The notes under the pieces are model-generated. The model ran no database searches, had not been told where the DNA came from, and was given only the letters and a program-made list of their open reading frames with translations. Positions 2,650-63,842 of a stretch of 64,000 nt of DNA are shown here, piece by piece (positions within the stretch are counted from its first letter, which is position 1; every line of letters starts with the position of its first letter). Both the position numbers and the translations under genes were made by a program. This stretch comes from Candidatus Nomurabacteria bacterium (lineage in GTDB: Bacteria > Patescibacteriota > Minisyncoccia > Phycocordibacterales > SBAW01). The DNA lies in assembly GCA_943356415.1 (NCBI GenBank), contig CALREW010000001.1, forward strand, positions 149,252 through 213,251, read 5' to 3'.

Positions 2650-3523
2650 CGCAATCCTTTTAAGCATAGCTACTGTAGCTGCGGTCGCAGGGCTTCTTCT
2701 CCTTGGCTATCAAACGTACGCACCGCGACCAACGGTGCCGGAAGCGCTGCGCCCTGCACCGACGCCCGCACATTTTAGCGCCGTAACATTGCCGAAAGAC
2801 GCACTCACCGCACAGGCGGCAATACTTTACAATCCCGCAACCAAAGAAGTCTTGTATGCAAAAAACGTCGAACAGCAGCTACCGCTTGCATCTCTCACAA
2901 AACTTGCGACAGCGCTTGCCGCGCTTTCACAAGGCGAAGATCGTTTAGTAACGATCCAATCACAAGATCTCAAAGAAGAAGGGGACTCGGGGCTCAAAGC
3001 AGGAGAGACGTGGCGTCTCGGCGACCTTATCGCCTTCGCACTCACCACCTCAAGCAACGACGGCATAGCGGCAGCGGCAGCGGGCGCTCTCACTCGTACT
3101 GCAGCGATTGAAAAAATGAACGAGGACGCAAAGGCGCAAGGTCTTTCACAGAGTTATTTCCTTAATCCGACCGGGCTCGACATTTCATCCTCGACCGCAG
3201 GTGCATACGGTTCAGCGCGCGACGTCGCGCAACTCGTCGAGACTATGCTACGAACGTATCCGGTCATTTTTGAAGCCACTGCTTATGAGCCCAGCGCACG
3301 CGCACCGAAAGAAGTGAGCACCCTTGCTCCTATACACAATCTCCCGGGTTTTGTTGCCGGAAAAACAGGCGACACAGACCTTGCAGGCGGAAATCTTGCT
3401 GCAGTTGTCGATGGTGGTCTAAACGAGCCACTTATTGCGGTAGTGCTCGGTTCAACACGCGATGGGCGCTTTGACGATGTGCGTACGTTAGTCGCTGCTG
3501 CACAGTCACAACGAGCACAATGA
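2639..3523 (+). CDS. D-alanyl-D-alanine carboxypeptidase (serine-type PBP5/6-like); start placed at ATG 2639 (MTRDAILL) rather than track start 2567
   Basis: SxxK (SLTK), SxN (SSN), KTG (GKTG) motifs; N-terminal TM segment. Confidence 0.7.
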   Translation: MTRDAILLSIATVAAVAGLLLLGYQTYAPRPTVPEALRPAPTPAHFSAVTLPKDALTAQAAILYNPATKEVLYAKNVEQQLPLASLTKLATALAALSQGEDRLVTIQSQDLKEEGDSGLKAGETWRLGDLIAFALTTSSNDGIAAAAAGALTRTAAIEKMNEDAKAQGLSQSYFLNPTGLDISSSTAGAYGSARDVAQLVETMLRTYPVIFEATAYEPSARAPKEVSTLAPIHNLPGFVAGKTGDTDLAGGNLAAVVDGGLNEPLIAVVLGSTRDGRFDDVRTLVAAAQSQRAQ

Positions 3524-4578
3524 GCATCGCCATACTCATCGTCATATTTGGGCCCGCTGTCGCTGCGTTTGCGCTTGGCATCGCCATGACTCCAGCACTG
3601 ACGCATTTTTTGTATTCGCGAAAAATGTGGAAGAAAAAAGGCGGCAAGATAGCGCTCGACGGGAGCACTGCCGAAGTCTTCAACACCCTCCATACTGAAA
3701 AAGAAGTTGGTACTCCACGTTTTGGAGGCATTATCGTATGGGCCAGCGTCTTGGCTTCTGCTGCTTTTTTCTTTGCACTCGCTGCCGCAACGGGTTACAC
3801 GGCACTCTGGGATCTCTCCTTTATTTCACGTGGCGAAACCTGGCTACCACTTGCAACACTCGCGTTAGGAGCGGCGGTTGGACTTATCGATGACCTATAC
3901 GAGGTGCGCGGGGTAGGGGGGTTGCGACTACGCATGCGCCTTATCATCGTGGGGGTCACCGCACTTTTTTGTGCTTGGTGGTTCTACTCCAAGCTTGGAG
4001 TCACGGGCGTTTCCATACCGTTTGATGGCGTCTTAGAGCTTGGTGTGCTTTTTATCCCTCTCTTTATGCTGGTGGCACTTTCTGTCTACGCCGGAGGAGT
4101 TATTGATGGAATCGACGGGCTTGCAGGAGGCGTATTTGCTGCCATGTTTGCCGCGTACGGCGGCATTGCCATTACCAACGGACAGATAGACCTCGCCGCT
4201 TTCTGCGCAACCGTTGTTGGTGGGCTACTCGCGTTTTTATGGTTCAATATCCCACCTGCCAGGTTTTATCTTTCTGAAACAGGGACGATGGGTCTTACTT
4301 TGACGCTTACCGTTGTTGCATTTCTCTCCGATACCCTGAGCGATGGAGTAGGGGTCCTCGTGCTCCCTATTATTGCGCTGCCCCTTGTAGCAACCGTCGG
4401 ATCCGTTTTGCTACAAATCGTTTGGAAAAAGGTGTTTGGAAAAAAACTTCTGCGCATCTCTCCACTACATCACCATTTCGAAGCTATCGGCTGGCCAGCC
4501 TATAAGGTGACGATGCGCTATTGGATTGTCTCTGTTATGTGCGCGATCATGGGGGTGAGCATCTCTTTGTTGGGATAA
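3520..4578 (+). CDS. mraY: Phospho-N-acetylmuramoyl-pentapeptide transferase (MraY-like polyprenyl-phosphate glycosyl-1-P transferase)
   Basis: GTPRFGG and PLHHHFE motifs, multi-TM; dcw context upstream of ftsW. Confidence 0.65.
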   Translation: MSIAILIVIFGPAVAAFALGIAMTPALTHFLYSRKMWKKKGGKIALDGSTAEVFNTLHTEKEVGTPRFGGIIVWASVLASAAFFFALAAATGYTALWDLSFISRGETWLPLATLALGAAVGLIDDLYEVRGVGGLRLRMRLIIVGVTALFCAWWFYSKLGVTGVSIPFDGVLELGVLFIPLFMLVALSVYAGGVIDGIDGLAGGVFAAMFAAYGGIAITNGQIDLAAFCATVVGGLLAFLWFNIPPARFYLSETGTMGLTLTLTVVAFLSDTLSDGVGVLVLPIIALPLVATVGSVLLQIVWKKVFGKKLLRISPLHHHFEAIGWPAYKVTMRYWIVSVMCAIMGVSISLLG

Positions 4579-4599
4579 CCCGCGGTACAATGTCCGGTA

Positions 4600-5700
4600 A
4601 TGAAGTCTGGACATCTTGATTACCCGTTCCTTTTTGTAACGTTACTGCTGTCTGCAACTGGCTTTCTTATTTTCTCGTCTGCAGCACTGGGTCTCCTTGC
4701 TCGCGAAGGCGCTTCGTTTGCAACGGTAGCTGGTACGCAAGTCCTCTTTGGTATTGTCTGCGGACTTATCGCCCTGTATGTCACCTCTCGTATAGACACC
4801 CGGTTATTGCGTCGCTTTTCTATCTATGTCTTTGGTATTTCGTGGATTGCGGCGTGGCTTCCATTTGTACCAGTTATTGGGCTCACGCTTAAAGGGGCGC
4901 ACCGTTGGATCGAGATAGGCGGCCTTTCATTCCAGCCTGCGGAACTCCTTAAAGTAGGGACTATCATTCTGCTCTCCTCGTACTTTGCTGCGTTTGCAAA
5001 CAAAGCCCACACCATCCGACACGGACTTATCCCATTTCTCGGCATTATTGCGATTGCCGCACTTCCGCTTGCCTTGCAACCCGACCACGACGGCATTCTT
5101 ATCCTCGGCATTGCCGGAGCTGCGGTGTACTTTGCGGCAGGGGGTCGCTTCCTTCATCTGCTTGGACTTGGCGTACTAGCGGCTGTAGTAGCAGCGCTGT
5201 TTATTTTCTCCAGACCTTACGTGATGGATCGCATAAAAACGTTTATCGACCCTTCACGCGACCCGCTTGGTGCCGGCTATCAAGTGACCCAATCGATTAT
5301 CGCCGTGGGTTCTGGTCAAGCGGTCGGTCGCGGCTTTGGACAAAGTATTCAAAAGTTCTCGCACCTACCCGAACCAATAGGGGACTCGGTATTTGCGGTT
5401 GCTGCTGAAGAGTTTGGTTTTGCCGGTTCAGTATTTTTAATAACGCTCTTCGTTGCATTTGCTGCGGCAGGTTTACGCATCGCTGCACTTTCAGCAGATA
5501 GATTTGGTGGCCTATTGGCGGTCGGACTTGTTGTGCACATAGTTAGCCAATCATTTATCAATATTGCATCTATGTTGGCGCTCTTTCCGTTATCGGGAAC
5601 CCCGCTTATTTTTGTAAGCCATGGCGGCACAGCCCTTCTTATTGCGCTCGCCGAGACTGGTATCATCCTTTCTGTATCGAGGCGTTTACGTAGTTCCTAA
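4600..5700 (+). CDS. ftsW: SEDS family peptidoglycan glycosyltransferase (FtsW/RodA)
   Basis: 10-TM SEDS-like sequence; between mraY and murG. Confidence 0.75.
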   Translation: MKSGHLDYPFLFVTLLLSATGFLIFSSAALGLLAREGASFATVAGTQVLFGIVCGLIALYVTSRIDTRLLRRFSIYVFGISWIAAWLPFVPVIGLTLKGAHRWIEIGGLSFQPAELLKVGTIILLSSYFAAFANKAHTIRHGLIPFLGIIAIAALPLALQPDHDGILILGIAGAAVYFAAGGRFLHLLGLGVLAAVVAALFIFSRPYVMDRIKTFIDPSRDPLGAGYQVTQSIIAVGSGQAVGRGFGQSIQKFSHLPEPIGDSVFAVAAEEFGFAGSVFLITLFVAFAAAGLRIAALSADRFGGLLAVGLVVHIVSQSFINIASMLALFPLSGTPLIFVSHGGTALLIALAETGIILSVSRRLRSS

Positions 5701-9258: not shown

Positions 9259-10563
9259 ATGCGTTTCCGTACTGTCTTGGTATTTATTTTTGTGCTTAGC
9301 TTGTGCGCCTCGGCGCAACGGGTAGCCCTTTTTATACCCACATCTATCGTCTACGCCGCAACTGAAGAAGAACTTAAGGCGCAAATAGACGAACACTCGA
9401 AACGTATCAATGACCTTGAAGCCGAAATATCAAAAATAGAAGTCGATCTTGCGACAACGACAAAACAGAAACAAACCCTGCAATCGACCATAAAAACGAT
9501 TGACCTCTCGCGTCAAAAAGTGAGCAGCAACATCAACCTCACTCAAAATAAAATACAAAAAACTGATCTTCAGATAACCGGACTCGCCGAAAATATTACC
9601 GAGACGGATAAAAAAATACACCGTCAACGCGAGGCAGTCCTTCTCGCACTCGCGTCCGTTTCTGATCTTGAAGATAGCGGCCTCGCCGTCTCACTTTTCT
9701 CTGGTGAAGATTTCTCGTCGTTTTTTGCTTCTGCCGCATCATTGTCGAGTTTGCGCGAAGCGCTACGTGCTCAAGTAGAAAAACTTTCGGGACTCAAGAC
9801 CAATCTTCAGGTCAGCAAAAGTTCTGCTGAAACTAAGCGCGCTGAACTTGCCGCACTCAAACGCGACCTCGCAGACCAAAAATCGCTTCTCGATCAAAAT
9901 CGAAAAGAGAAAGATTCGCTTTTAACTACAACAAAAAACAAAGAAGCGAACTATCAAAAACTCCTTGAAGAAAAGCGTGCGCTTAAAGCGCAGTTTGAAT
10001 CAGACCTTCGTGACTTTGAAAACCAGCTTAACCTCACGGTTGATGCGGCGAGTATCCCGAAATATGGCTCCGGCGTTTTGAAATGGCCAGTTGATAAGGT
10101 GGTTATCACTCAAAACTTTGGCAACACGGCATTCTCGACACAAAACCCACAGATTTATAGCGGCAAAGGGCACAACGGCATCGACCTTGGTATTCCTTCC
10201 GGTAGCAAAATTAAAGCTGCACGCGGAGGCACCGTAAAAGGTACCGGCGACACTGACCTTACCTGTCCGAATGCCTCCTACGGCAAATGGGTTCTTGTTC
10301 AACACGACAACGGACTTTCAACCCTCTACGCCCACCTCTCCTATATCCGCGTGACCACGGGCACGAGTGTTGCGACAGGGGATTTGCTCGGCTACAGCGG
10401 CAACACTGGCTACTCAACTGGTCCACATCTTCACTTCACTGTCTATGCAACACAAGGTGTCGAAATACGTTCCTTCTCTAGTCAGTCGTGTAAAGGAAAG
10501 AAGTACACCATGCCCGTTGCTGATACCAAAGCGTATCTAAATCCGCTTTCATACCTACCGTAA
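9259..10563 (+). CDS. M23 family metallopeptidase with N-terminal coiled coil (EnvC/NlpD-like murein hydrolase activator)
   Basis: Signal peptide, long coiled coil, C-terminal GHNGIDL...YAHL...HLHF M23 motifs. Confidence 0.8.
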   Translation: MRFRTVLVFIFVLSLCASAQRVALFIPTSIVYAATEEELKAQIDEHSKRINDLEAEISKIEVDLATTTKQKQTLQSTIKTIDLSRQKVSSNINLTQNKIQKTDLQITGLAENITETDKKIHRQREAVLLALASVSDLEDSGLAVSLFSGEDFSSFFASAASLSSLREALRAQVEKLSGLKTNLQVSKSSAETKRAELAALKRDLADQKSLLDQNRKEKDSLLTTTKNKEANYQKLLEEKRALKAQFESDLRDFENQLNLTVDAASIPKYGSGVLKWPVDKVVITQNFGNTAFSTQNPQIYSGKGHNGIDLGIPSGSKIKAARGGTVKGTGDTDLTCPNASYGKWVLVQHDNGLSTLYAHLSYIRVTTGTSVATGDLLGYSGNTGYSTGPHLHFTVYATQGVEIRSFSSQSCKGKKYTMPVADTKAYLNPLSYLP

Positions 10564-10618
10564 TGCAAAAGGCGCTGCGGGATTTCTCCCGAGCGCCTTC
10601 GCCCGTTTCTTGATGCGC

Positions 10619-11119
10619 TTACGCGCTAGAAGCTGCCACCGAAGCCAGACGAGGCCGCTGGCGGATGAGAAGTTTACCCTCCACCACCTCGCCAAAGCCT
10701 GACTCGCGGTACATCTCACCCGCCGCGCCTTCCATGACATGCGCGACGATGGCGAGATGCCGCTTCGCCATGCTGTCAGCCTCGTTGACGAGGCATTCGA
10801 TCAGCGCCGCCCGGAGACGCAGCAACTCTTCGCCGTCCTTGATGGGGGCGAAGAAGAAGTTGGTGATGATCCCGGCGTTGCCGCTCAACAGGTCGAGGTG
10901 AGCGAGCGAGGCCGTCGCCACGATCCGGCCGGTCTTGCCGATCAGGCTACGACGGACCACCGCGATGCGGCAGGATGTCATGACGCGCTGGAGGCCTTCG
11001 AGGGTGACGGACACGCCACCTTTCGAGATGTGGTGGAAATCGTCGACATCAGCTTGCGTCACGCACGAAGGGTGCAGCGTATGGGCTTGGCCATAGACGA
11101 AGCCAGTGTTCTCAATCAT
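10619..11119 (-). CDS. Hypothetical protein (GC-rich island); start placed at MIENTGF, track ORF extends to 11215
   Basis: ORF in about 62% GC DNA downstream of the GNAT gene on the same strand; no recognisable motif. Confidence 0.35.
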   Translation of the reverse strand: MIENTGFVYGQAHTLHPSCVTQADVDDFHHISKGGVSVTLEGLQRVMTSCRIAVVRRSLIGKTGRIVATASLAHLDLLSGNAGIITNFFFAPIKDGEELLRLRAALIECLVNEADSMAKRHLAIVAHVMEGAAGEMYRESGFGEVVEGKLLIRQRPRLASVAASSA

Positions 11120-11283
11120 GGCTCTAACCTCACAAGTTGCCAGTTGGGGAAACAAAGCAGATATTCGAACAGGTACAATCGATAAAACCATACAATAAAC
11201 CTTATATTCCGTCAATATAACGAAAACCGCCAGGGGAGACCCCGGGCGGTTTCGCTACTCACTCGTAGCTGGTGGATGGATAT

Positions 11284-11775
11284 TCACGTGCCGCCCGGGG
11301 TCCAACGATAGGTCCGTGTGTGGCGGCGCTGCACACCCCAGCCCTGCATCGTCGAGCCTTCGTAGAAGGCCTGTGCACCCGTCTTGCTCGAAGTCCAGTC
11401 GACGTGATCGAACTTCTTCTCACGCGCGACTTGGAACAGCTTGCGCATGACACGTTTGCCAAGGCCTCGGCCTTCATGTGCGCGGAGCGTCGAGACGTCA
11501 TTGACCGTCGCGAAGCGCTTGCCGACGTACTCCGCGAGCAAATGCGGCGTCATGATGGCCATCGAGACGATGGTGCCGCCACTGTCGCGCACAACCACCC
11601 AATACGCGCCTTGCGCAAGGACCATCTCATAGTGCCAACGCAGCTGCTCGAGCGACTTCGCAGGCAAGCTTTTGTTGCCAGCCAAATGCTGCATCAAAGC
11701 GGCGATGGCCTGCACATCCTTATCCGTAAGACGCTGTCCTCCGATCAACTCAGCCTCGCTGTAGGCTTCAGCCAT
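11284..11775 (-). CDS. GNAT family N-acetyltransferase (GC-rich island)
   Basis: Acetyl-CoA binding motif RAHEGRGLGKRVMRKL and C-terminal GAQAFYEGSTMQG. Confidence 0.7.
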   Translation of the reverse strand: MAEAYSEAELIGGQRLTDKDVQAIAALMQHLAGNKSLPAKSLEQLRWHYEMVLAQGAYWVVVRDSGGTIVSMAIMTPHLLAEYVGKRFATVNDVSTLRAHEGRGLGKRVMRKLFQVAREKKFDHVDWTSSKTGAQAFYEGSTMQGWGVQRRHTRTYRWTPGGT

Positions 11776-11863
11776 TGTCTTGGCCTCCCAGCCACTGTTT
11801 CAACCTCAGGGACTATAACCAACTCTCGTAGAAAAAAGTAGCGGACAGGGAAGTCGCTCCTCA

Positions 11864-11909
11864 AAAACAACAACGCCCGCGAGGAGTTACCCTCGGGGCG
11901 CGTGTTGAA
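11864..11909. repeat. Left copy of a 46-bp perfect inverted repeat (AAAACAACAACGCCCGCGAGGAGTTACCCTCGGGGCGCGTGTTGAA)
   Basis: Exact reverse complement found at 14154..14199; also hairpin-capable. Confidence 0.9.
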
Positions 11910-11935
11910 GTGATCCTTCGAAGTGATCCTTCAAG
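11910..11935. repeat. Tandem 13-bp direct repeat GTGATCCTTCGAA / GTGATCCTTCAAG abutting the left IR
   Basis: Read directly. Confidence 0.8.
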
Positions 11936-11946
11936 GTGCTGCGGCA

Positions 11947-12246
11947 TCACCTCTTCAGGCTGGCGATGACGTAGTTCGCCAGCGACCAGAGCGTGCCGAA
12001 ACCTGCGGCGACGGCGATGAAGGCCGACACGCCCCTGATAGGGCCAGCCGAAATACTTGCCGCGACAGCGACGCAGATGGCGCAAATCAGGCCATAGAAC
12101 GCTGCGCAGATCAGTTCCTGCGCGATATCGTTCAGTTCGTCCCACACGGGGAATCGCGGCTTACGGCGAGATGTAATGGACATTGTTCGAAGCCCTTCGC
12201 GCGAATGCCTCTGCACGAGCTTGATTGCTCTTAAGGTGCAGTGCAT
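11947..12246 (-). CDS. Hypothetical small membrane protein (99 aa, GC-rich) inside the IR-bounded cassette
   Basis: Two predicted TM helices; GC-rich codon usage. Confidence 0.35.
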   Translation of the reverse strand: MHCTLRAIKLVQRHSREGLRTMSITSRRKPRFPVWDELNDIAQELICAAFYGLICAICVAVAASISAGPIRGVSAFIAVAAGFGTLWSLANYVIASLKR

Positions 12247-12748
12247 TTAACCAAACATACGGTACCACACTTATTTAATTTAGCTAGCCTAGCCGAGATT
12301 TTGAACTAAATAGGGGAGACAGGCTTCCCTAAACCTCCATGATTTTTTGACTAAACCTTCAGCCGCGTTAACAACCAGGGAATTACATACCCACAAACCA
12401 ATCAGATTTATATACACGCGGTGTGTGTGGGGTAGAAGGTCTGTTGCCTTAGACTCAAAGCCCAGTACTTGGCTATCCTAGTTCGTCTATAGCCATACGT
12501 CGCAAAAGGTATATTGTGCGACGTATGTAATCTCTTCTCCCCTAGGGACTAGGATGGCCGAGACGGTTGGTTGGGGCTTAGTGCCCTACGACGTTGTGCA
12601 GCGCGTGGCGCGACAGAATGGCACCGGAATACTTTTATGGGAAAGAAGCGAGTGAAGGCTGAATCTAATAGGTCTACCCCCCCCCCGACCGATTTGCTCA
12701 GGAAACCGGGGGAGACCGGCTTCCCTATTTCAGCGTAGAATTGTACCT

Positions 12749-13192
12749 GTGAGACATCAGGAGCTCGTAAAACGGATTCGCGAAAATGCTGAGCAAGGCC
12801 GGAGATTGGAAGCCTTTTTGCTACTCATGGCGTACATAGAGACTATTTTCAACATGCACCTGCAGTTTGTAATTATGATGGCTGCGAATAAGCAAATTGG
12901 TGATAGTAAGCCAATGGATACTGTCTATAAGAAAATTGAGCGGATGCGTATCTCAGAAGTTTTGCAAATGCTTTTTGACATGCAGCAGATCGAAAAAGAG
13001 TTTAAGAACAACCTGGGAAAACTTTTTGATAAGAGGAATCAATTAATACACGACGTCGTAAGTCACGTCATGTTCAACGTTAAATTAGACGACTCACTTA
13101 CTGAACCTTACGAGCAGGCTTTTACTGTGTTGGAAACGGAAATTTTTAAAAGCTGGACTGCCACACTTGATCAGCAATTTACAGGCAATTAG
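12749..13192 (+). CDS. Hypothetical all-alpha protein with a HEPN-like Rx4H motif (KRNQLIHD); candidate RNase toxin or abortive-infection effector
   Basis: RNQLIH matches the R-[NHQ]-x3-H HEPN catalytic motif; AT-rich; GTG start; convergent with a membrane protein gene. Confidence 0.45.
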   Translation: MRHQELVKRIRENAEQGRRLEAFLLLMAYIETIFNMHLQFVIMMAANKQIGDSKPMDTVYKKIERMRISEVLQMLFDMQQIEKEFKNNLGKLFDKRNQLIHDVVSHVMFNVKLDDSLTEPYEQAFTVLETEIFKSWTATLDQQFTGN

Positions 13193-13232
13193 GCAGAGAA
13201 GTCTTGTCTGAAAGAAAAAGTATTTACATCCC

Positions 13233-13958
13233 CTACCTGTCTCTACTTTTGCGCCACGCGATAAACTCTAGGAACGGCAAGCAGACAAAATGACAGGCTT
13301 CTCTAAACAGGAGAAGTGTGCCGATCCAGACACTTAGAACAACGTAGTAAATCAAAATCGCATAATCCCATTTGAATATAGTGTGTATACATGCGTCTGA
13401 TCCCGGGCCAATATCGATTGCCATATGCTGCCCAGAGCTGAAGGTTGTTGTAGAAATTGGCGTCGCCGCAAAGAGAGTAGTTGTTGAAGCCATCCGTTTT
13501 CCAAGTTCACTTATGGGCAAGTTAGACCAAATGGTTTTTTCGTCGTGAACACTCAAACTAACGGAGGCGTCAGTTGGTGTCATTACCACATAAGAAACTT
13601 CGCTTGCTTGTGAATATTCTCCAGTTTCTACATTTCTAAATCCGACTGACTTTAGGTTGTTTGACGCCACAACATCAGCAATAAACCAACTGTCGGTAAA
13701 TTTGATTATAGGTTCCAGTGATTTCAATTCTTCATACGTAAAAGTAGTACTCTGGTTATTTCTTTCAGGGATTAGGCAAAAATCTCTTGAATAATGCTTA
13801 TCAACCCACACTAAAAATATAAAAGGGACGACAAGAATAAAAAGTGTTTTCCTAAATTGAGCACTGGCAAATAATCTAACAAGGAAATCTTTGACTTGCG
13901 GACCTTTCGAAGCAAGCCATTTTAACCTGACCCACCATTTAATAAGCACTTCTTTCAC
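13233..13958 (-). CDS. Hypothetical membrane protein (TM helices at both ends, central extracytoplasmic domain), AT-rich
   Basis: Hydrophobic segments LFILVVPFIFLVWV and YAILIYYVVLSVWIGTLLLF; convergent partner of the HEPN-like ORF. Confidence 0.45.
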   Translation of the reverse strand: MKEVLIKWWVRLKWLASKGPQVKDFLVRLFASAQFRKTLFILVVPFIFLVWVDKHYSRDFCLIPERNNQSTTFTYEELKSLEPIIKFTDSWFIADVVASNNLKSVGFRNVETGEYSQASEVSYVVMTPTDASVSLSVHDEKTIWSNLPISELGKRMASTTTLFAATPISTTTFSSGQHMAIDIGPGSDACIHTIFKWDYAILIYYVVLSVWIGTLLLFREACHFVCLPFLEFIAWRKSRDR

Positions 13959-14153
13959 GTTCTAACCCTACCACCAATAATTTACGCTAGAAGGGGTCTT
14001 CCCTTCTCCTGTAGAATGTAGCTGTGGGCTATATAATTAAGAAGAATATTCTACTTACTGGCGCTGGCTTCAGTGCAAATTTTGGTGGTCTCCTTGCTGC
14101 GGATAGTCCGAAACGACGAGGGAAAACCGCCAGAGTAATCGGTTCGGTTCGAG

Positions 14154-14199
14154 TTCAACACGCGCCCCGAGGGTAACTCCTCGCGGGCGTTGTTGTTTT
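14154..14199. repeat. Right copy of the 46-bp perfect inverted repeat; on the + strand it reads as hairpin plus T-run (terminator-like)
   Basis: Exact reverse complement of 11864..11909. Confidence 0.9.
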
Positions 14200-14244
14200 A
14201 AAACGGTATAATTAATCCCATACAAGCTTTAGATAATTTTCTTC

Positions 14245-15457: not shown

Positions 15458-15667
15458 ATCTCTTGCGTCTCTTTTGCTCTAGTCGGGCTGCCGGTCGGCC
15501 AGGCGTTCAAGCTTCGCCGTCGCTCACCTTGCCGCACGGCCCTGGCTCGTCATCTTGGGCCGGTGCCCAAGATATGCCTCCGCCTTTCGATTCCCGGCCG
15601 CAGAGTATGCAGATACTCTATTCAGCCCACCCATACGTAAAAGAGACGCTCTCGCGTCTTTTTACTT

Positions 15668-15741
15668 TGGTCGGGCTGCCGGGAATCGAACCCGGTCCAC
15701 ATCCACCCCATGGATGCATACTACCGGTATACTACAGCCCG
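15668..15741 (-). tRNA. tRNA-Pro (anticodon GGG), CCA encoded
   Basis: Manual fold: 7-bp acceptor stem (C1-G70 to G7-C64, 5' CGGGCUG) with discriminator A71 and encoded CCA, U8, D-loop with GG, anticodon loop AUGGGGU (G37), T-arm CCGGG-UUCGAUU-CCCGG. Confidence 0.7.
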
Positions 15742-48058: not shown

Positions 48059-49103
48059 GTTCGATAAGAATGTCGCGGTAGCTTTCTATATCTTCAAGTA
48101 CCACACCCGCGCCGCGTGCAACCGCGGTGAGCGGATCGTCCGCAACATGCACCGGTATTTTAACCCACTCGGAAATTAAGCGATCTAAGTCTTTTATAAG
48201 TGCACCGCCTCCCACTAGGTAAATACCGCTCTTCATAATATCGGCAAGTATTTCAGGCGGCGTTGTTTCGATAACTTCACGCACCGACTCAACAAGCGTA
48301 TCGATAGACTGCGACACCGCTTCGCGCACATCAGAGTCCGTCACAATCACTTCGCGCGGCAACCCGGTAATAAGATCGCGTCCGCGTACCACCGCTTCAA
48401 GTGGTCGGTCGCCTTCAATCACCGCTCCGATAGCCATCTTTACATTTTCTGCCGTTTTCTCTCCTATCAATATTTTGAACTCCGATCGTATATGAGAAAT
48501 GATGTCCTGATTGAGTTTGTCTCCCGCGATTCTGAGATTTTTTGAACGAACGATGCCACCAAGCGAAATGACGGCGATATCAGTGGTGCCACCACCAATA
48601 TCGACAATCATTGAGCCGACCGCTTCTTTTACCGGAAGACGGATGCCGAGCGCTGCAGCCATCGGTTCTTCGATAATGTGCACTTCGCGCGCGCCAGCAT
48701 TCTGAGCCGCATCGCGCACCGCGCGTATCTCGACGTTCGTAATGCCGGAAGGCACACCCACGACAACGCGTGCGCCGAGCAGTTTTCTTCCTTCACCCTG
48801 CGCACGGTTCATCAAATATGCCAGCATTTCTTCGGTCACTTCGAAATCTGAAATAACACCGTCAACGAGCGGACGCACCGCAACAAGATGTCCGGGAGTG
48901 CGCCCCAACATTTCCTTTGCAGAGGCACCCACCGCAACAACACGGCCGGTCTTTTGGTTGACCGCCACGACTGATGGCTCATTGACTACAATGCCGCGCC
49001 CGCGCACATAGACAAGCGTATTGGCCGTTCCGAGGTCGATGCCGAGGTCGTTGCTCGCGAGGCTCGCTATTTTTTCACGCAGTCGTTTAAACATAGAGAG
49101 CAT
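48039..49103 (-). CDS. mreB: Rod shape-determining protein MreB
   Basis: Actin-like ATPase with canonical MreB motifs (DLGTANTLVYV, VDIGGGTTD). Confidence 0.9.
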   Translation of the reverse strand: MLSMFKRLREKIASLASNDLGIDLGTANTLVYVRGRGIVVNEPSVVAVNQKTGRVVAVGASAKEMLGRTPGHLVAVRPLVDGVISDFEVTEEMLAYLMNRAQGEGRKLLGARVVVGVPSGITNVEIRAVRDAAQNAGAREVHIIEEPMAAALGIRLPVKEAVGSMIVDIGGGTTDIAVISLGGIVRSKNLRIAGDKLNQDIISHIRSEFKILIGEKTAENVKMAIGAVIEGDRPLEAVVRGRDLITGLPREVIVTDSDVREAVSQSIDTLVESVREVIETTPPEILADIMKSGIYLVGGGALIKDLDRLISEWVKIPVHVADDPLTAVARGAGVVLEDIESYRDILIEHDDDLS

Positions 49104-57267: not shown

Positions 57268-58281
57268 CTACCTCTTAGCAATAATGGAGCGCTTATACGT
57301 ATCGAGGTGCTCGAGAGCGATGCCAGTCCCCTTCGCTACACAATAGAGCGGATCTTGAGCAAGTTCAGCGCGTACGCCGGTGCGGCGCAAAACAAGTTCA
57401 GGAAAATTGCGCAACTGACTCGTGCCACCCGTCATGATGATGCCATAGTCGATGATATCGGCCGCAAGCTCTGGCGGCGTCTCTTGCAGAACATCGCGAA
57501 TCGCTTTGATTATCTCGCGCAATTCACGACCAATTGCTTTTACTATTTCGTTGGTGCGGATTTCAGTCTGACGTGGAAGCCCGGTGATAAAGTCGCGTCC
57601 TTTAATGATCATCGCGAGCTCTTCTTCAACCGGCACCGCGGAACCAACCTGTATTTTTATTTGCTCTGCCGTCTTGTCTCCAATCGCAAGGTTAAAGGTC
57701 TTCTTTATATAGTCAGCGATAGCGTGATCAAGCCTATCGCCCGCACACTTCACCGACGTTGAGGCGACGATGCCGCCGAGAGAAATCACTGCGACGTCAG
57801 TGGTTCCTCCACCTATGTCGACAATCATATGTCCGCGTGGTTCTTGGATGGGAATACCTGCGCCGATAGCGGCAAGCACCGGTTCTTTAACCACATACGC
57901 GTTTCGCGCACCCCCCTTTATCGCCGCCTCAACAACTGCGCGGCGCTCAGTTGATGTAACACCTGCCGGCACCGATACCATTACTTCAGGTTTAAAGAAT
58001 GAGAAGCGTCCCATCGCTTTGCCGATAAAGTAACGCAGCATCGCCTGCGTCACGCGATAGTCCGCGATAACCCCGTCGCGCATCGGCCGATACGCGATAA
58101 TCTCGTCCGGCGTGCGGCCGATCATTTCCTTTGCTTCAAAGCCAACCGCAAGAATGCGCTTATCTATTTCTGAAATAGCGACAACTGAAGGTTCGTTGAG
58201 GATGACACCTTTACCGGGTACGAATACGAGTGTATTTGCAGTGCCTAAGTCGATTCCGAGTTTTGGAGAGAAAAACGACAT
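57268..58281 (-). CDS. mbl: Second MreB paralog (Mbl/MreBH-like)
   Basis: Full-length MreB-like with all actin-fold motifs. Confidence 0.85.
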   Translation of the reverse strand: MSFFSPKLGIDLGTANTLVFVPGKGVILNEPSVVAISEIDKRILAVGFEAKEMIGRTPDEIIAYRPMRDGVIADYRVTQAMLRYFIGKAMGRFSFFKPEVMVSVPAGVTSTERRAVVEAAIKGGARNAYVVKEPVLAAIGAGIPIQEPRGHMIVDIGGGTTDVAVISLGGIVASTSVKCAGDRLDHAIADYIKKTFNLAIGDKTAEQIKIQVGSAVPVEEELAMIIKGRDFITGLPRQTEIRTNEIVKAIGRELREIIKAIRDVLQETPPELAADIIDYGIIMTGGTSQLRNFPELVLRRTGVRAELAQDPLYCVAKGTGIALEHLDTYKRSIIAKR

Positions 58282-62623: not shown

Positions 62624-63097
62624 ATGCGCACGCGAAACGTAAATATCCTGGCCTGGGGGCTTGGTCTGATCGTGGGTGGCATCGTCCTCTACGCCGGACT
62701 CGCGGGCTTCGGCTTCTTCGATGGGAGCTGGGCGCCAAGCCGAGCGTCGGCTAACAAGAACCCCATCGACGAGGTTTACCACCTCGTCGTCGCACAGCAA
62801 TTGCCGCCGGGCCCTGGGCCAAACACGACCCGCATCGTCAGCGCCAGCGGGACGTACGTACTTGGTGCTACGGCACCCAATACGTTCAGCGTCTCGCGTG
62901 AGGGGTCACCGAGGCTCGGTGTCGTGATGCAGAAGCTGGGCGACGTCTGGAATTCGACCAGCGTTACCGGTTTTGAAACCACGCTGAACCGGGATTCCGG
63001 GCGAGCGCGTATCCTCGACCCGCAGAAGCTGCAGGATTTCATCAACACGGCAATCAACGCCGCGTTGGCCTGCAGTCACAGGAAGAACATGTGCTGA
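62624..63097 (+). CDS. Hypothetical secreted protein (GC-rich), paralog of 63267..63791
   Basis: N-terminal TM/signal; C-terminus FINTAINAALACSHRKNMC similar to FLMKAFDAARSCGYNKTQC. Confidence 0.4.
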   Translation: MRTRNVNILAWGLGLIVGGIVLYAGLAGFGFFDGSWAPSRASANKNPIDEVYHLVVAQQLPPGPGPNTTRIVSASGTYVLGATAPNTFSVSREGSPRLGVVMQKLGDVWNSTSVTGFETTLNRDSGRARILDPQKLQDFINTAINAALACSHRKNMC

Positions 63098-63146
63098 CCT
63101 CGGTCACCACGCAGCGAGCGCCCCTCACCGGGCGCTCGTTTTGCGT
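63095..63146 (+). terminator. Terminator hairpin GAGCGCCC-ctcacc-GGGCGCTC plus GTTTTGCGT; copy 1 of a near-identical repeat
   Basis: Almost identical to 63789..63842. Confidence 0.6.
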
Positions 63147-63266: not shown

Positions 63267-63791
63267 ATGTCGTGGTTTATCCGCCTCTTCGTCCCAGTCC
63301 TTCTCCTTCTCGCGCTCGGCGCGTGCGACAACGGCAACAAGAAGGCCAAATCCCCGCCTCCCCCGGCACCGACGGAGCTCGACCTGGCAGCCAACCAGGT
63401 CCTGGACCTCTTCCTCTCGGGCAAGCTGCCCATGGGGAATGATGCCTTCGGCGCCCCTGCGGCCGTCTTCGGCAAGCACACGGTGCCGGCGGTGCCCTCG
63501 ATTAACGCGCCGGCGTACACCATGGAGTACACCATCACGATGGACTCCATCGATAAGTGGACGAGCCTGAAGATCGCTGTCCGCTACAGCAATGGCGCGG
63601 GCAGCTACGTCGGCATCTCTCGGCTTAACACCGAGACGAAGTGGGCCATCAATGGTGTCGGCAACATGCCGTGGACATCCGGGGCCAACTGGAACGAGCC
63701 GGGCAGCGTGGACTATCCACGCTACAAAGAATTCCTGATGAAGGCCTTCGACGCCGCCCGCTCCTGCGGCTACAACAAGACCCAGTGCTGA
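63267..63791 (+). CDS. Hypothetical lipoprotein (GC-rich), lipobox LLALGAC
   Basis: Signal peptide with LALGAC, Pro-rich linker; paralogous C-terminus. Confidence 0.45.
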   Translation: MSWFIRLFVPVLLLLALGACDNGNKKAKSPPPPAPTELDLAANQVLDLFLSGKLPMGNDAFGAPAAVFGKHTVPAVPSINAPAYTMEYTITMDSIDKWTSLKIAVRYSNGAGSYVGISRLNTETKWAINGVGNMPWTSGANWNEPGSVDYPRYKEFLMKAFDAARSCGYNKTQC

Positions 63792-63842
63792 CCTCGGTCA
63801 CCACGCAGCGGGCGCCCCTCACCGGGCGCTCGTTTTGCGTTT
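63789..63842 (+). terminator. Copy 2 of the conserved 3' end plus terminator repeat
   Basis: One mismatch versus 63095..63146. Confidence 0.6.

Follow-up and report, generated by a model that had tools for sequence, protein, structure and literature searches.

A probable dif site and its variable surroundings in a Patescibacteria chromosome

The intergenic gap and its central palindrome

The DNA analysed here is a 64-kb stretch of a Candidatus Nomurabacteria chromosome (contig CALREW010000001.1 of assembly GCA_943356415.1), called the window below. Our subject is a gap at 12247–12748 between two divergent open reading frames (ORFs), a small two-helix membrane ORF on the left and an orphan ORF on the right. 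In its middle lies a near-palindrome of 28 bp, which we take with good confidence, judging from sequence comparisons, for a chromosomal dif site. Such a site is where sister chromosomes are untangled at cell division.

An earlier account made from the letters alone (the sequence-only reading) took the gap for a densely structured region that could encode an RNA. The hairpins that it named are all present, namely the 11-bp perfect stem of CATACGTCGCA and TGCGACGTATG at 12494–12504 and 12517–12527 with a 12-nt loop, the GGCTAT...ATAGCC stem at 12471–12493 and the palindrome CCCTAGGG at 12540–12547. Its claim of dense secondary structure survives for the + strand of the whole 502 nt, which folds better than shuffled sequences (z = −2.78), and not for the − strand (z = −1.07) or for the two halves without the palindrome (z = −0.43 and +1.29, no better than shuffled sequence). 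What drives the + strand excess is the central palindrome, together with the pairing of two copies of a 19-nt repeat. In our account, the hairpin potential would be a by-product of the dyad symmetry of dif.

The longest ORF inside the gap is of 55 amino acids (aa) or less in the window's version of the sequence. By other gene callers, the two neighbours begin at 12183 (a product of 78 aa) and at either 12827 or 12875, so that the gap may reach about 640 bp. The features are listed in Table 1.

Table 1. Features in and around the gap, in window coordinates
Feature	Coordinates	Strand	Description
dif-like site, 28 bp	12497..12524	+	Left arm ACGTCGCAAAA 12497–12507, centre GGTATA 12508–12513, right arm TTGTGCGACGT 12514–12524
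Extended palindrome	12494..12527	.	The 11-bp stem of the sequence-only reading; dif arms plus 3 more complementary bp per side
Pyrimidine block TTCTCCCCTA	12535..12544	−	GGGGAG on − strand, pointing at the dif-like site; about 15–35 nt right of right arm
Shared block GGGGTAGAAGGTCTGTT	12429..12445	+	Offset −71 here, −68 in L055
Repeat M1	12308..12331	+	AAATA-GGGGAG-ACAGG-CTTCCCTA; 8-bp-stem hairpin from two convergent GGGRAG words; 67 nt upstream (− strand) of ATG 12246
Repeat M2	12709..12727	+	22 nt upstream of GTG 12749; within DNA absent from L055
Degenerate third M copy	11847..11862	−	GAGGAGCGACTTCCCT on − strand; 72 nt upstream of GNAT start 11775
C10 homopolymer	12677..12686	+	C9 or C10 between assemblies
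Upstream ORF crossing C tract	12637..12738	+	33 aa from ATG 12637; 55 aa from TTG 12571
Small two-helix membrane ORF	11947..12246	−	Putative cargo gene left of the site, read away from it
Orphan all-helical ORF	12749..13192	+	'HEPN-like' in the sequence-only reading; putative cargo gene right of the site, start GTG 12749
46-bp perfect inverted repeat, left arm	11864..11909	−	Intrinsic terminator after small membrane gene; fold z = −3.99
46-bp perfect inverted repeat, right arm	14154..14199	+	Terminator; right edge of DNA absent from L055

Conservation of the 28-bp site

In blastn and nhmmer comparisons of 11860–14200 with 20 related loci (L plus a number denotes a locus or contig), the hairpin is the only conserved piece. 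The site is found in 10 related loci, always once, on the + strand and downstream of gltX and an M23 peptidase gene. Its invariant columns are CG.AAAA..TAT.TTGTGCG(A). The core is likewise invariant in 50 distinct Patescibacteria copies from both Paceibacteria and TM7/Saccharibacteria, which include the 10 gltX/M23-syntenic genome loci, 24 of 25 viral-collection contigs found by the core pattern (the remaining copy was not counted, being too near the end of its contig) and, from a search with the window's exact 28-mer, 15 metagenome contigs.

Across the 50 copies, the right half never changes, while changes occur in the left half at two positions. A pair of inner positions (A/G and G/A) lacks complementarity in every copy. 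Outside the 20-nt core, the complementarity in unselected loci is 0.82, 0.82, 0.55, 0.82 and 0.73 at offsets 1–5 and comes down to background by offset 10. Because it is high for 4–5 bp beyond the core and then decays, the site is about 28–30 bp. The palindrome reaches beyond the 28-mer in several lineages (by up to 12 bp), L008, L012 and the window among them.

The closest syntenic relative, L052, has an exonuclease 73% identical to the window's, and only the 28-mer aligns between the two, the flanks of the site being unconserved. The neighbouring proteins assign the window to Patescibacteria. The best relatives of the M23 peptidase come from metagenome-assembled genomes named Paceibacterota, Parcubacteria, Vogelbacteria and Yonathbacteria with identities of 48% or less, so relatives at the nucleotide level are not to be expected.

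A single full copy is present in the window and in every locus without a prophage. The window has no second dif-like site or half-site at up to 2–3 mismatches, as would be left by an IMEX (a mobile integrative element that exploits Xer). Extra partial arm copies lie near the full site in three other loci, a direct half-site 353 bp upstream of it in L007 (9040–9055 and 9393–9408) and inverted left-arm copies in L010 (5277–5297) and L016 (9197–9214). They may be scars of past Xer-mediated events.

To the right of the site, the pyrimidine block recurs elsewhere. A YTYCCCY word starts at +35 to +57 at 11 of 26 non-viral sites, against 0.3 expected. Equivalents reading CTCCCCT or CTTCCCT are seen in L004, L006, L007, L010, L012, L016, L020, L054, L055 and L057.

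Position at the probable replication terminus

Gene orientation switches at the site. In every locus, the genes to its left are on the + strand (in the longest loci, 13/13 in L006, 12/12 in L015 and 10/10 in L007), and those to its right are mostly on the − strand. With the left arm of this organism extended 8.6 kb leftwards from another assembly, its conserved left-arm genes are all on the + strand over 21 kb. The GC skew is higher on the left side in 9 of 11 loci.

For oligomer polarity, an unbiased k-mer search covered 274 kb of flanks, each arm being read towards the site, and the most skewed words in that direction were AGGGGAG (65:6), GGGGAAG (49:2), AGGGAAG (52:4) and GAGGGGA (43:2). 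The polarity tracks the arm and not the gene strand, as the + strand genes of the right arm carry the word on the − strand (35:8, p = 4e-5). In 11 of 12 long loci, the best polarity breakpoint takes in the site or is no more than about 200 bp away. In this organism, with the left arm extended as above, GGGRAG is counted 12:3 left of the site and 9:39 right of it (p = 3e-5), and the switch is at the site.

Over 90% of RGGGRAG words are co-oriented towards the site on both arms irrespective of gene strand. We regard them as candidate FtsK-orienting polar sequences (KOPS) of Patescibacteria. The gap itself would be the replication-terminus spacer of a Paceibacteria-type chromosome.

The genes for DoxX, an SLT-like protein and an exonuclease that are right-hand neighbours of the site in the window are on its left in L058. 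This neighbour swap fits terminus-centred inversions.

Prophages integrated at the site in TM7

The matches in the viral collection are fragments of host chromosomes (with MurG, an FtsQ-like protein and DUF3048) that bear filamentous-phage-like elements. The host is TM7/Saccharibacteria by the names on near-identical DUF3048 proteins. At least two element types are present, and L031, L036, L038, L042 and L044–L046 also bear elements.

Five contigs with an identical DUF3048 protein represent one TM7 species and show both states of the site. The empty alleles (L070 and L071) have the order of DUF3048, site and FtsQ. In the occupied alleles (L069, L072 and L073), an element of 5–6 kb is inserted between two direct copies of the site with the host flanks preserved; one junction keeps the left flank with the host left arm, and the other keeps the right flank. 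Of the second site of these alleles, only the centre and the right arm are left.

The elements encode Zot, Rep-G2P and DUF2726. No integrase was found by domain search among the ORFs of the equivalent L038 element, and none is listed for those of L069, L072 and L073. As the prophages have no recognisable recombinase, the integration would have to be carried out by a host enzyme. Integration without an own integrase is the behaviour of IMEX (PMC5357621), and inoviruses have been reported in this radiation without detail on the integration site (PMC6813254).

A XerD-like match occurs across all loci in L023 only. There, a tyrosine recombinase gene at 3823–4755 (− strand) has a product that shares 30% identity with XerD of E. 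coli along 140 aa, and its stop codon is about 460 nt from the site at 3340–3360. The arrangement recalls the xerS and xerH modules next to dif.

Assignment of the palindrome to dif

Known dif sites consist of two half-sites of about 11 bp with partial dyad symmetry around a centre of 6–8 bp, and are located at the terminus (PMC5357621, PMC3025954). The window's site has the 11+6+11 layout and the terminus location, and the TM7 loci add its use as an attachment site for integrase-less elements, none of which is seen in the window. Together with the conservation throughout the phylum, these three points lead us to assign the palindrome to dif.

The two arms are almost the same sequence (CGCAAAA vs CGCACAA), so one recombinase, or two very similar ones, may serve both arms, as with difH/XerH or archaeal dif/XerA. 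The invariant right arm and the variable left arm would resemble the XerD and XerC arms, respectively.

Several observations weigh against this assignment. The GC skew of the window (left of the site about −0.01 to −0.02, right of it about −0.06) keeps its sign, already declines from about 6 kb to the left of the site and by itself does not localise the terminus. With E. coli XerD as a tblastn query, no homologue was found in the 64-kb window or in the loci except L023, and neither a Xer recombinase gene nor an FtsK gene is present in the 64 kb or in most loci. A profile of the Patescibacteria sites does not match E. coli dif significantly (E = 1.5). In L048, L051 and L057, the palindrome is extended by 12 more perfectly complementary bp of unrelated sequence, which a 28-bp protein site leaves unexplained, and at both variable core positions pairing on the + strand stays G-U-compatible.

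The lack of a xer gene in the window and its weak GC-skew switch, together with the directly demonstrated integration, would also suit a target of mobile elements alone (an attB used by another recombinase) or an operator, with no part in dimer resolution. This appears very unlikely. Without a recognisable recombinase of their own, the prophages need a host enzyme, and the site is kept across classes of the phylum with or without a prophage. It moreover coincides with the switch in gene orientation and oligomer polarity, and an operator is unexpected at the convergent 3′ ends where it lies in most loci. Reasoning from the alignments, we rejected an NrdR box, a LexA-type operator and a bidirectional terminator for half-sites out of register, the absence of a U tract and the position between convergent genes.

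The sequence-only reading had suggested that the gap could encode a structured non-coding RNA such as an antitoxin RNA. A rival account builds on this, with the hairpin as the core of the RNA and the 'HEPN-like' neighbour as the toxin. We consider it extremely improbable. It could draw on the + strand folding, on the conservation of the hairpin, on the variable core positions (C/T opposite G and G/A opposite T) that preserve pairing in a + strand RNA, and on the unrelated complementary sequences that extend the stem in some lineages. Yet the palindrome-free halves fold like shuffles, and the conserved 'loop' and the two invariant mismatches suit an asymmetric protein site. The element also has convergent genes on its two sides, and prophages cut and rejoin it as they integrate.

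The search for an RNA family that the sequence-only reading had advised turned up only tRNAs and noise in Rfam (gathering cut-offs on the window and on 9 related loci, and E ≤ 10 on 11900–13100). A 9-nt complement, TAGGGGAGA/TCTCCCCTA, that would enclose the structure was tried as a conserved closing stem and rejected; relatives do not conserve the pairing, and 24 of 300 shuffles equal it in the window. The gap lacks the tandem array of type III antitoxins, the repeat copies being 396 bp apart, and nothing in the searches marks the neighbour as a toxin. Relatives do keep the central hairpin, as the RNA proposal had foreseen, but the way it is conserved and its behaviour in genomes match a recombination site in double-stranded DNA and not an RNA.

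The 19-nt repeat

The two copies of a 19-nt motif, GGGGAGAC(A/C)GGCTTCCCTA, that the sequence-only reading had pointed out are present at 12313–12331 and 12709–12727, the second just before the start of the orphan ORF. No other copy occurs in the 64 kb at up to 3 mismatches, and 0 are expected. Each reads GGGGAG-N5-CTTCCC, that is, two convergent words of the polar family, and can form an 8-bp hairpin.

The metagenome contig L055 shares the 28-mer, with a DoxX gene 90 nt right of its site, and has the repeat as well. It carries AAATAGGGGAGCGCGACTTCCCT at −188 from the site, the same offset as M1, and shares a second block, GGGGTAGA..CTGTT, with the window at about −70. The degenerate third copy of the window is nearly identical to L055 421–435, which precedes the 264-aa gene of L055. 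The closest syntenic relative, L052, lacks the repeat, and a metagenome scan gave no matches to the two-copy arrangement. A scan of viral contigs for AAATAGGGGAG-N5-CTTCCCT yielded one chance-level terminator with no dif nearby, which was discarded.

A gene starts about 22–72 nt downstream of the repeat in 5 of 6 intergenic occurrences. By this position, the most likely role of the repeat would be in the cargo modules next to dif, as their promoter-proximal operator or 5′ leader element, a tentative reading that we hold to be somewhat less likely than not, though ahead of the other role considered. It is weakened by its derivation from position, and by one L055 copy with no gene downstream before dif. 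The regulatory binding sites suggested by the sequence-only reading are reasonable for the repeat, to the extent that position can tell.

Another role would be in the dimer-resolution machinery, the repeats and the CTCCCC block serving as KOPS-like FtsK-orienting words or as accessory sites like cer and psi. Each repeat is made of two convergent words of the very family with the strongest polarity to the site, M1 lies exactly at −188 in two organisms with largely diverged sequence between, and the − strand GGGGAG is positionally conserved about 20–35 nt right of the right arm. This role is nevertheless distinctly unlikely. The repeat is found in two organisms only and is missing from L052, each copy would be one permissive and one non-permissive word, and many G-rich words are skewed, so that the identity of the word is not pinned.

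Proposed cargo modules around the site

The 46-bp perfect inverted repeat is the only such pair in the 64 kb, and brackets a 2.3-kb segment with the dif-like site and two putative cargo modules. Both of its arms read as strong hairpins of intrinsic terminators. The two modules would flank dif facing outwards, with the 19-nt repeat at their start and the same 46-bp terminator at their end, and the DNA on both sides of dif would be variable cargo. Relative to L055, the window has extra DNA at about 12545–14199; within it are C10, M2, the right 46-bp arm and two ORFs, the orphan and one of 241 aa. A consensus scan of 11800–13300 for promoters and terminators found no sites.

Base composition around the site is patchy. 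The left part (10550–12200) is about 60% GC and has a 198-aa ORF, a GNAT gene and the small membrane ORF, all against the usual orientation; the right part (12800–14000), with the orphan and 241-aa ORFs, is about 38% GC, and the genome average is about 51%. The patchiness suggests that the cargo was acquired separately. The Logan contig L065 ends inside both 46-bp arms, and at 11907–11932, just inside the left arm, the 13-mer GAAGTGATCCTTC is perfectly duplicated in tandem.

When the cargo proteins were compared with PHROGs, with PADLOC and with the prophage loci, the only matches were that of the GNAT acetyltransferase and two marginal PADLOC matches of the orphan ORF. The latter (E = 7.5e-4 and 2.5e-3, 16 bits) are to entries of undescribed function. 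The orphan product matches only itself among 5.8 billion clusters, in a cluster of three members of 121, 184 and 105 aa.

The orphan ORF had been called HEPN-like, and the searches lend this no support. It has no Pfam match at or above the gathering cut-offs, no PHROG family and no significant PDB match, the best being E = 0.64 by sequence and E = 2.5 by Foldseek. Its AlphaFold2 model is all-helical and of low confidence, with a predicted local distance difference test score of 59.5. What is left of the assignment is an R-x4-H string, RNQLIH. Because the orphan ORF has no HEPN or other toxin assignment, the toxin-antitoxin frame is without support.

Other repeats of the window lie away from the gap. 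The 3′ end of tRNA-Pro (15668–15741, − strand) is partially repeated in direct orientation 188 bp away (15472–15494 vs 15660–15682), and a further inverted fragment of it lies at 15586–15601; these could be the scar of an element once integrated at the tRNA. The repeat of 48550–48670 and 57767–57887 is within two MreB paralogues. A 78-nt direct repeat with 88% identity (63069–63146 and 63763–63840) is near the right end of the window.

The poly-C tract

The sequence-only reading described a C9 run as a possible site of slipped-strand phase variation. The window in fact carries C10, the sole G/C run of 7 or more in the 64 kb, where about 0.1 runs of at least C10 are expected. Three other assemblies, taken as consensus sequences, match the window exactly apart from the tract. 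One of them has C10 like the window (L001, ERZ27280315, 4.6 kb overlap), and two have C9 (L065, Logan ERR5863124, 2.3 kb; L066, ERZ27280317, 20.3 kb).

In silico, the tract length decides a reading frame. With C9, ATG 12637 is in frame with the orphan ORF and gives a protein of 184 aa; with C10, the frame stops at 12738. The statement of the sequence-only reading that the gap has no credible ORF holds for C10 but not for the predicted C9 frame. The 184-aa member of the orphan cluster, P0002, was called on a C9 contig.

In our account, the C tract by the right-hand repeat would be a hypermutable run. C9 would couple the upstream ATG to the orphan ORF and C10 would uncouple it, so the tract could act as an on/off or long/short switch. 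The slipped-strand idea finds partial support in the length, which is the sole difference between otherwise identical assemblies, and the effect on expression is what we infer from the frames.

The difference could instead be a consensus artefact of a homopolymer, with no regulatory meaning, and the 19-nt repeats could be left over by chance from a local duplication. A homopolymer of about 10 nt is prone to errors, and the 37-aa extension is Arg-rich and has neither a homologue nor a Shine-Dalgarno sequence, a point that also counts against the switch. One gene caller ignored the extension on a C9 contig and called 105 aa, and in L055 the homologous poly-C, a C8 run 18 nt upstream of its repeat copy, has no gene after it.

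We nonetheless find an artefact rather unlikely. The tract is the only difference in 20.3 kb, each length is backed by two assemblies, and the nineteen A7 and T7 runs of the window match wherever the assemblies overlap. The run is unique in the 64 kb, and poly-C accompanies the repeat also in L055. As to chance remnants, 0 copies of the repeat are expected, and one is at the same dif offset in another organism.

Comparison with known systems

The site resembles dif of E. coli (XerCD) and B. subtilis (CodV-RipX) in its 28 bp, its 11-bp arms with partial dyad symmetry and its 6-bp centre. In register, it is identical to E. coli dif (verified in NC_000913.3) at 17 of 28 positions including a CGCA.AA..GTATATT.TG core, and shares with it the terminus region and the higher conservation of one arm. 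It differs in that the Patescibacteria arms are far more alike and complementary to their ends, that no xerC, xerD or ftsK is in the sequence examined here and that the profile match is too weak.

The difSL/XerS module has the recombinase gene beside the site (PMC5357621), whereas here this is seen in L023 alone, within 500 bp. Also, the centre is 6 bp here and 11 bp in difSL.

The TM7 elements are like the IMEX CTXphi, VGJphi and TLCphi and the gonococcal island. They are integrase-less Zot/Rep-G2P elements that have a full site at one end and at the other a second site, one arm of which is degenerate, with empty alleles in the same species. The window, in contrast, has neither phage genes nor a second site, and its putative cargo consists of small orphan genes that have a hairpin repeat and a shared terminator as their boundaries.

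The C tract is similar to the contingency loci of Neisseria, Haemophilus and Campylobacter. It is a long G/C run unique in its surroundings, a one-base change shifts the frame into the downstream ORF, and the length differs between otherwise identical sequences. The likeness is limited by the evidence here being assembly consensus and by the putative translation of the extension. We found no report of homopolymer switches in Patescibacteria in a literature search.

The polar words compare with KOPS of FtsK and the SpoIIIE recognition sequences (SRS) in being G-rich 7- to 8-mers, here more than 90% directed towards the site on both arms whatever the gene strand. The KOPS and SRS words are GGGNAGGG and GAGAAGGG, and RGGGRAG differs from them. 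Furthermore, a general G-richness of the leading strand adds to the skew of these candidate words.

Implications

Taken as a whole, the account of a terminus spacer with dif, flanking cargo modules and a hypermutable C tract seems likely to us. A full-text literature search found no description of a dif site in Patescibacteria, Saccharibacteria or the Candidate Phyla Radiation. What would be new is dif/Xer with IMEX, known elsewhere, in Patescibacteria; the hairpin-repeat modules and the polymorphic poly-C are local features.

A broader scheme is a long shot. In it, the phylum would have a single near-palindromic dif, one Xer and RGGGRAG guidance with one word fixed about 20–35 nt from the invariant arm, and the dif flank would be a zone of cassette capture, whose modules bring in unrelated cargo genes and have a shared hairpin 5′ element (with poly-C) and a shared terminator, at least one being switched by poly-C slippage. 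If true, it would be a dif-linked, phase-variable platform of accessory genes, distinct from phage-type IMEX, integron cassettes and the pdif modules of Acinetobacter.

The dif consensus, (A)TGTCGYAAAAGRTATATTGTGCGAC, would be a terminus landmark for Patescibacteria genomes, nearly all of which are metagenome-assembled. It could be used for assembly checks, for the orientation of replichores and for calibrating coverage-based growth estimates, which already employ dif (PMC6251912).

The oral TM7 filamentous prophages, integrating at the site without their own integrase, would extend the Xer-exploiting elements to this phylum. The flanks of dif are flagged as a home of variable cargo in these reduced genomes, and the C tract may be a homopolymer switch in an uncultured lineage.

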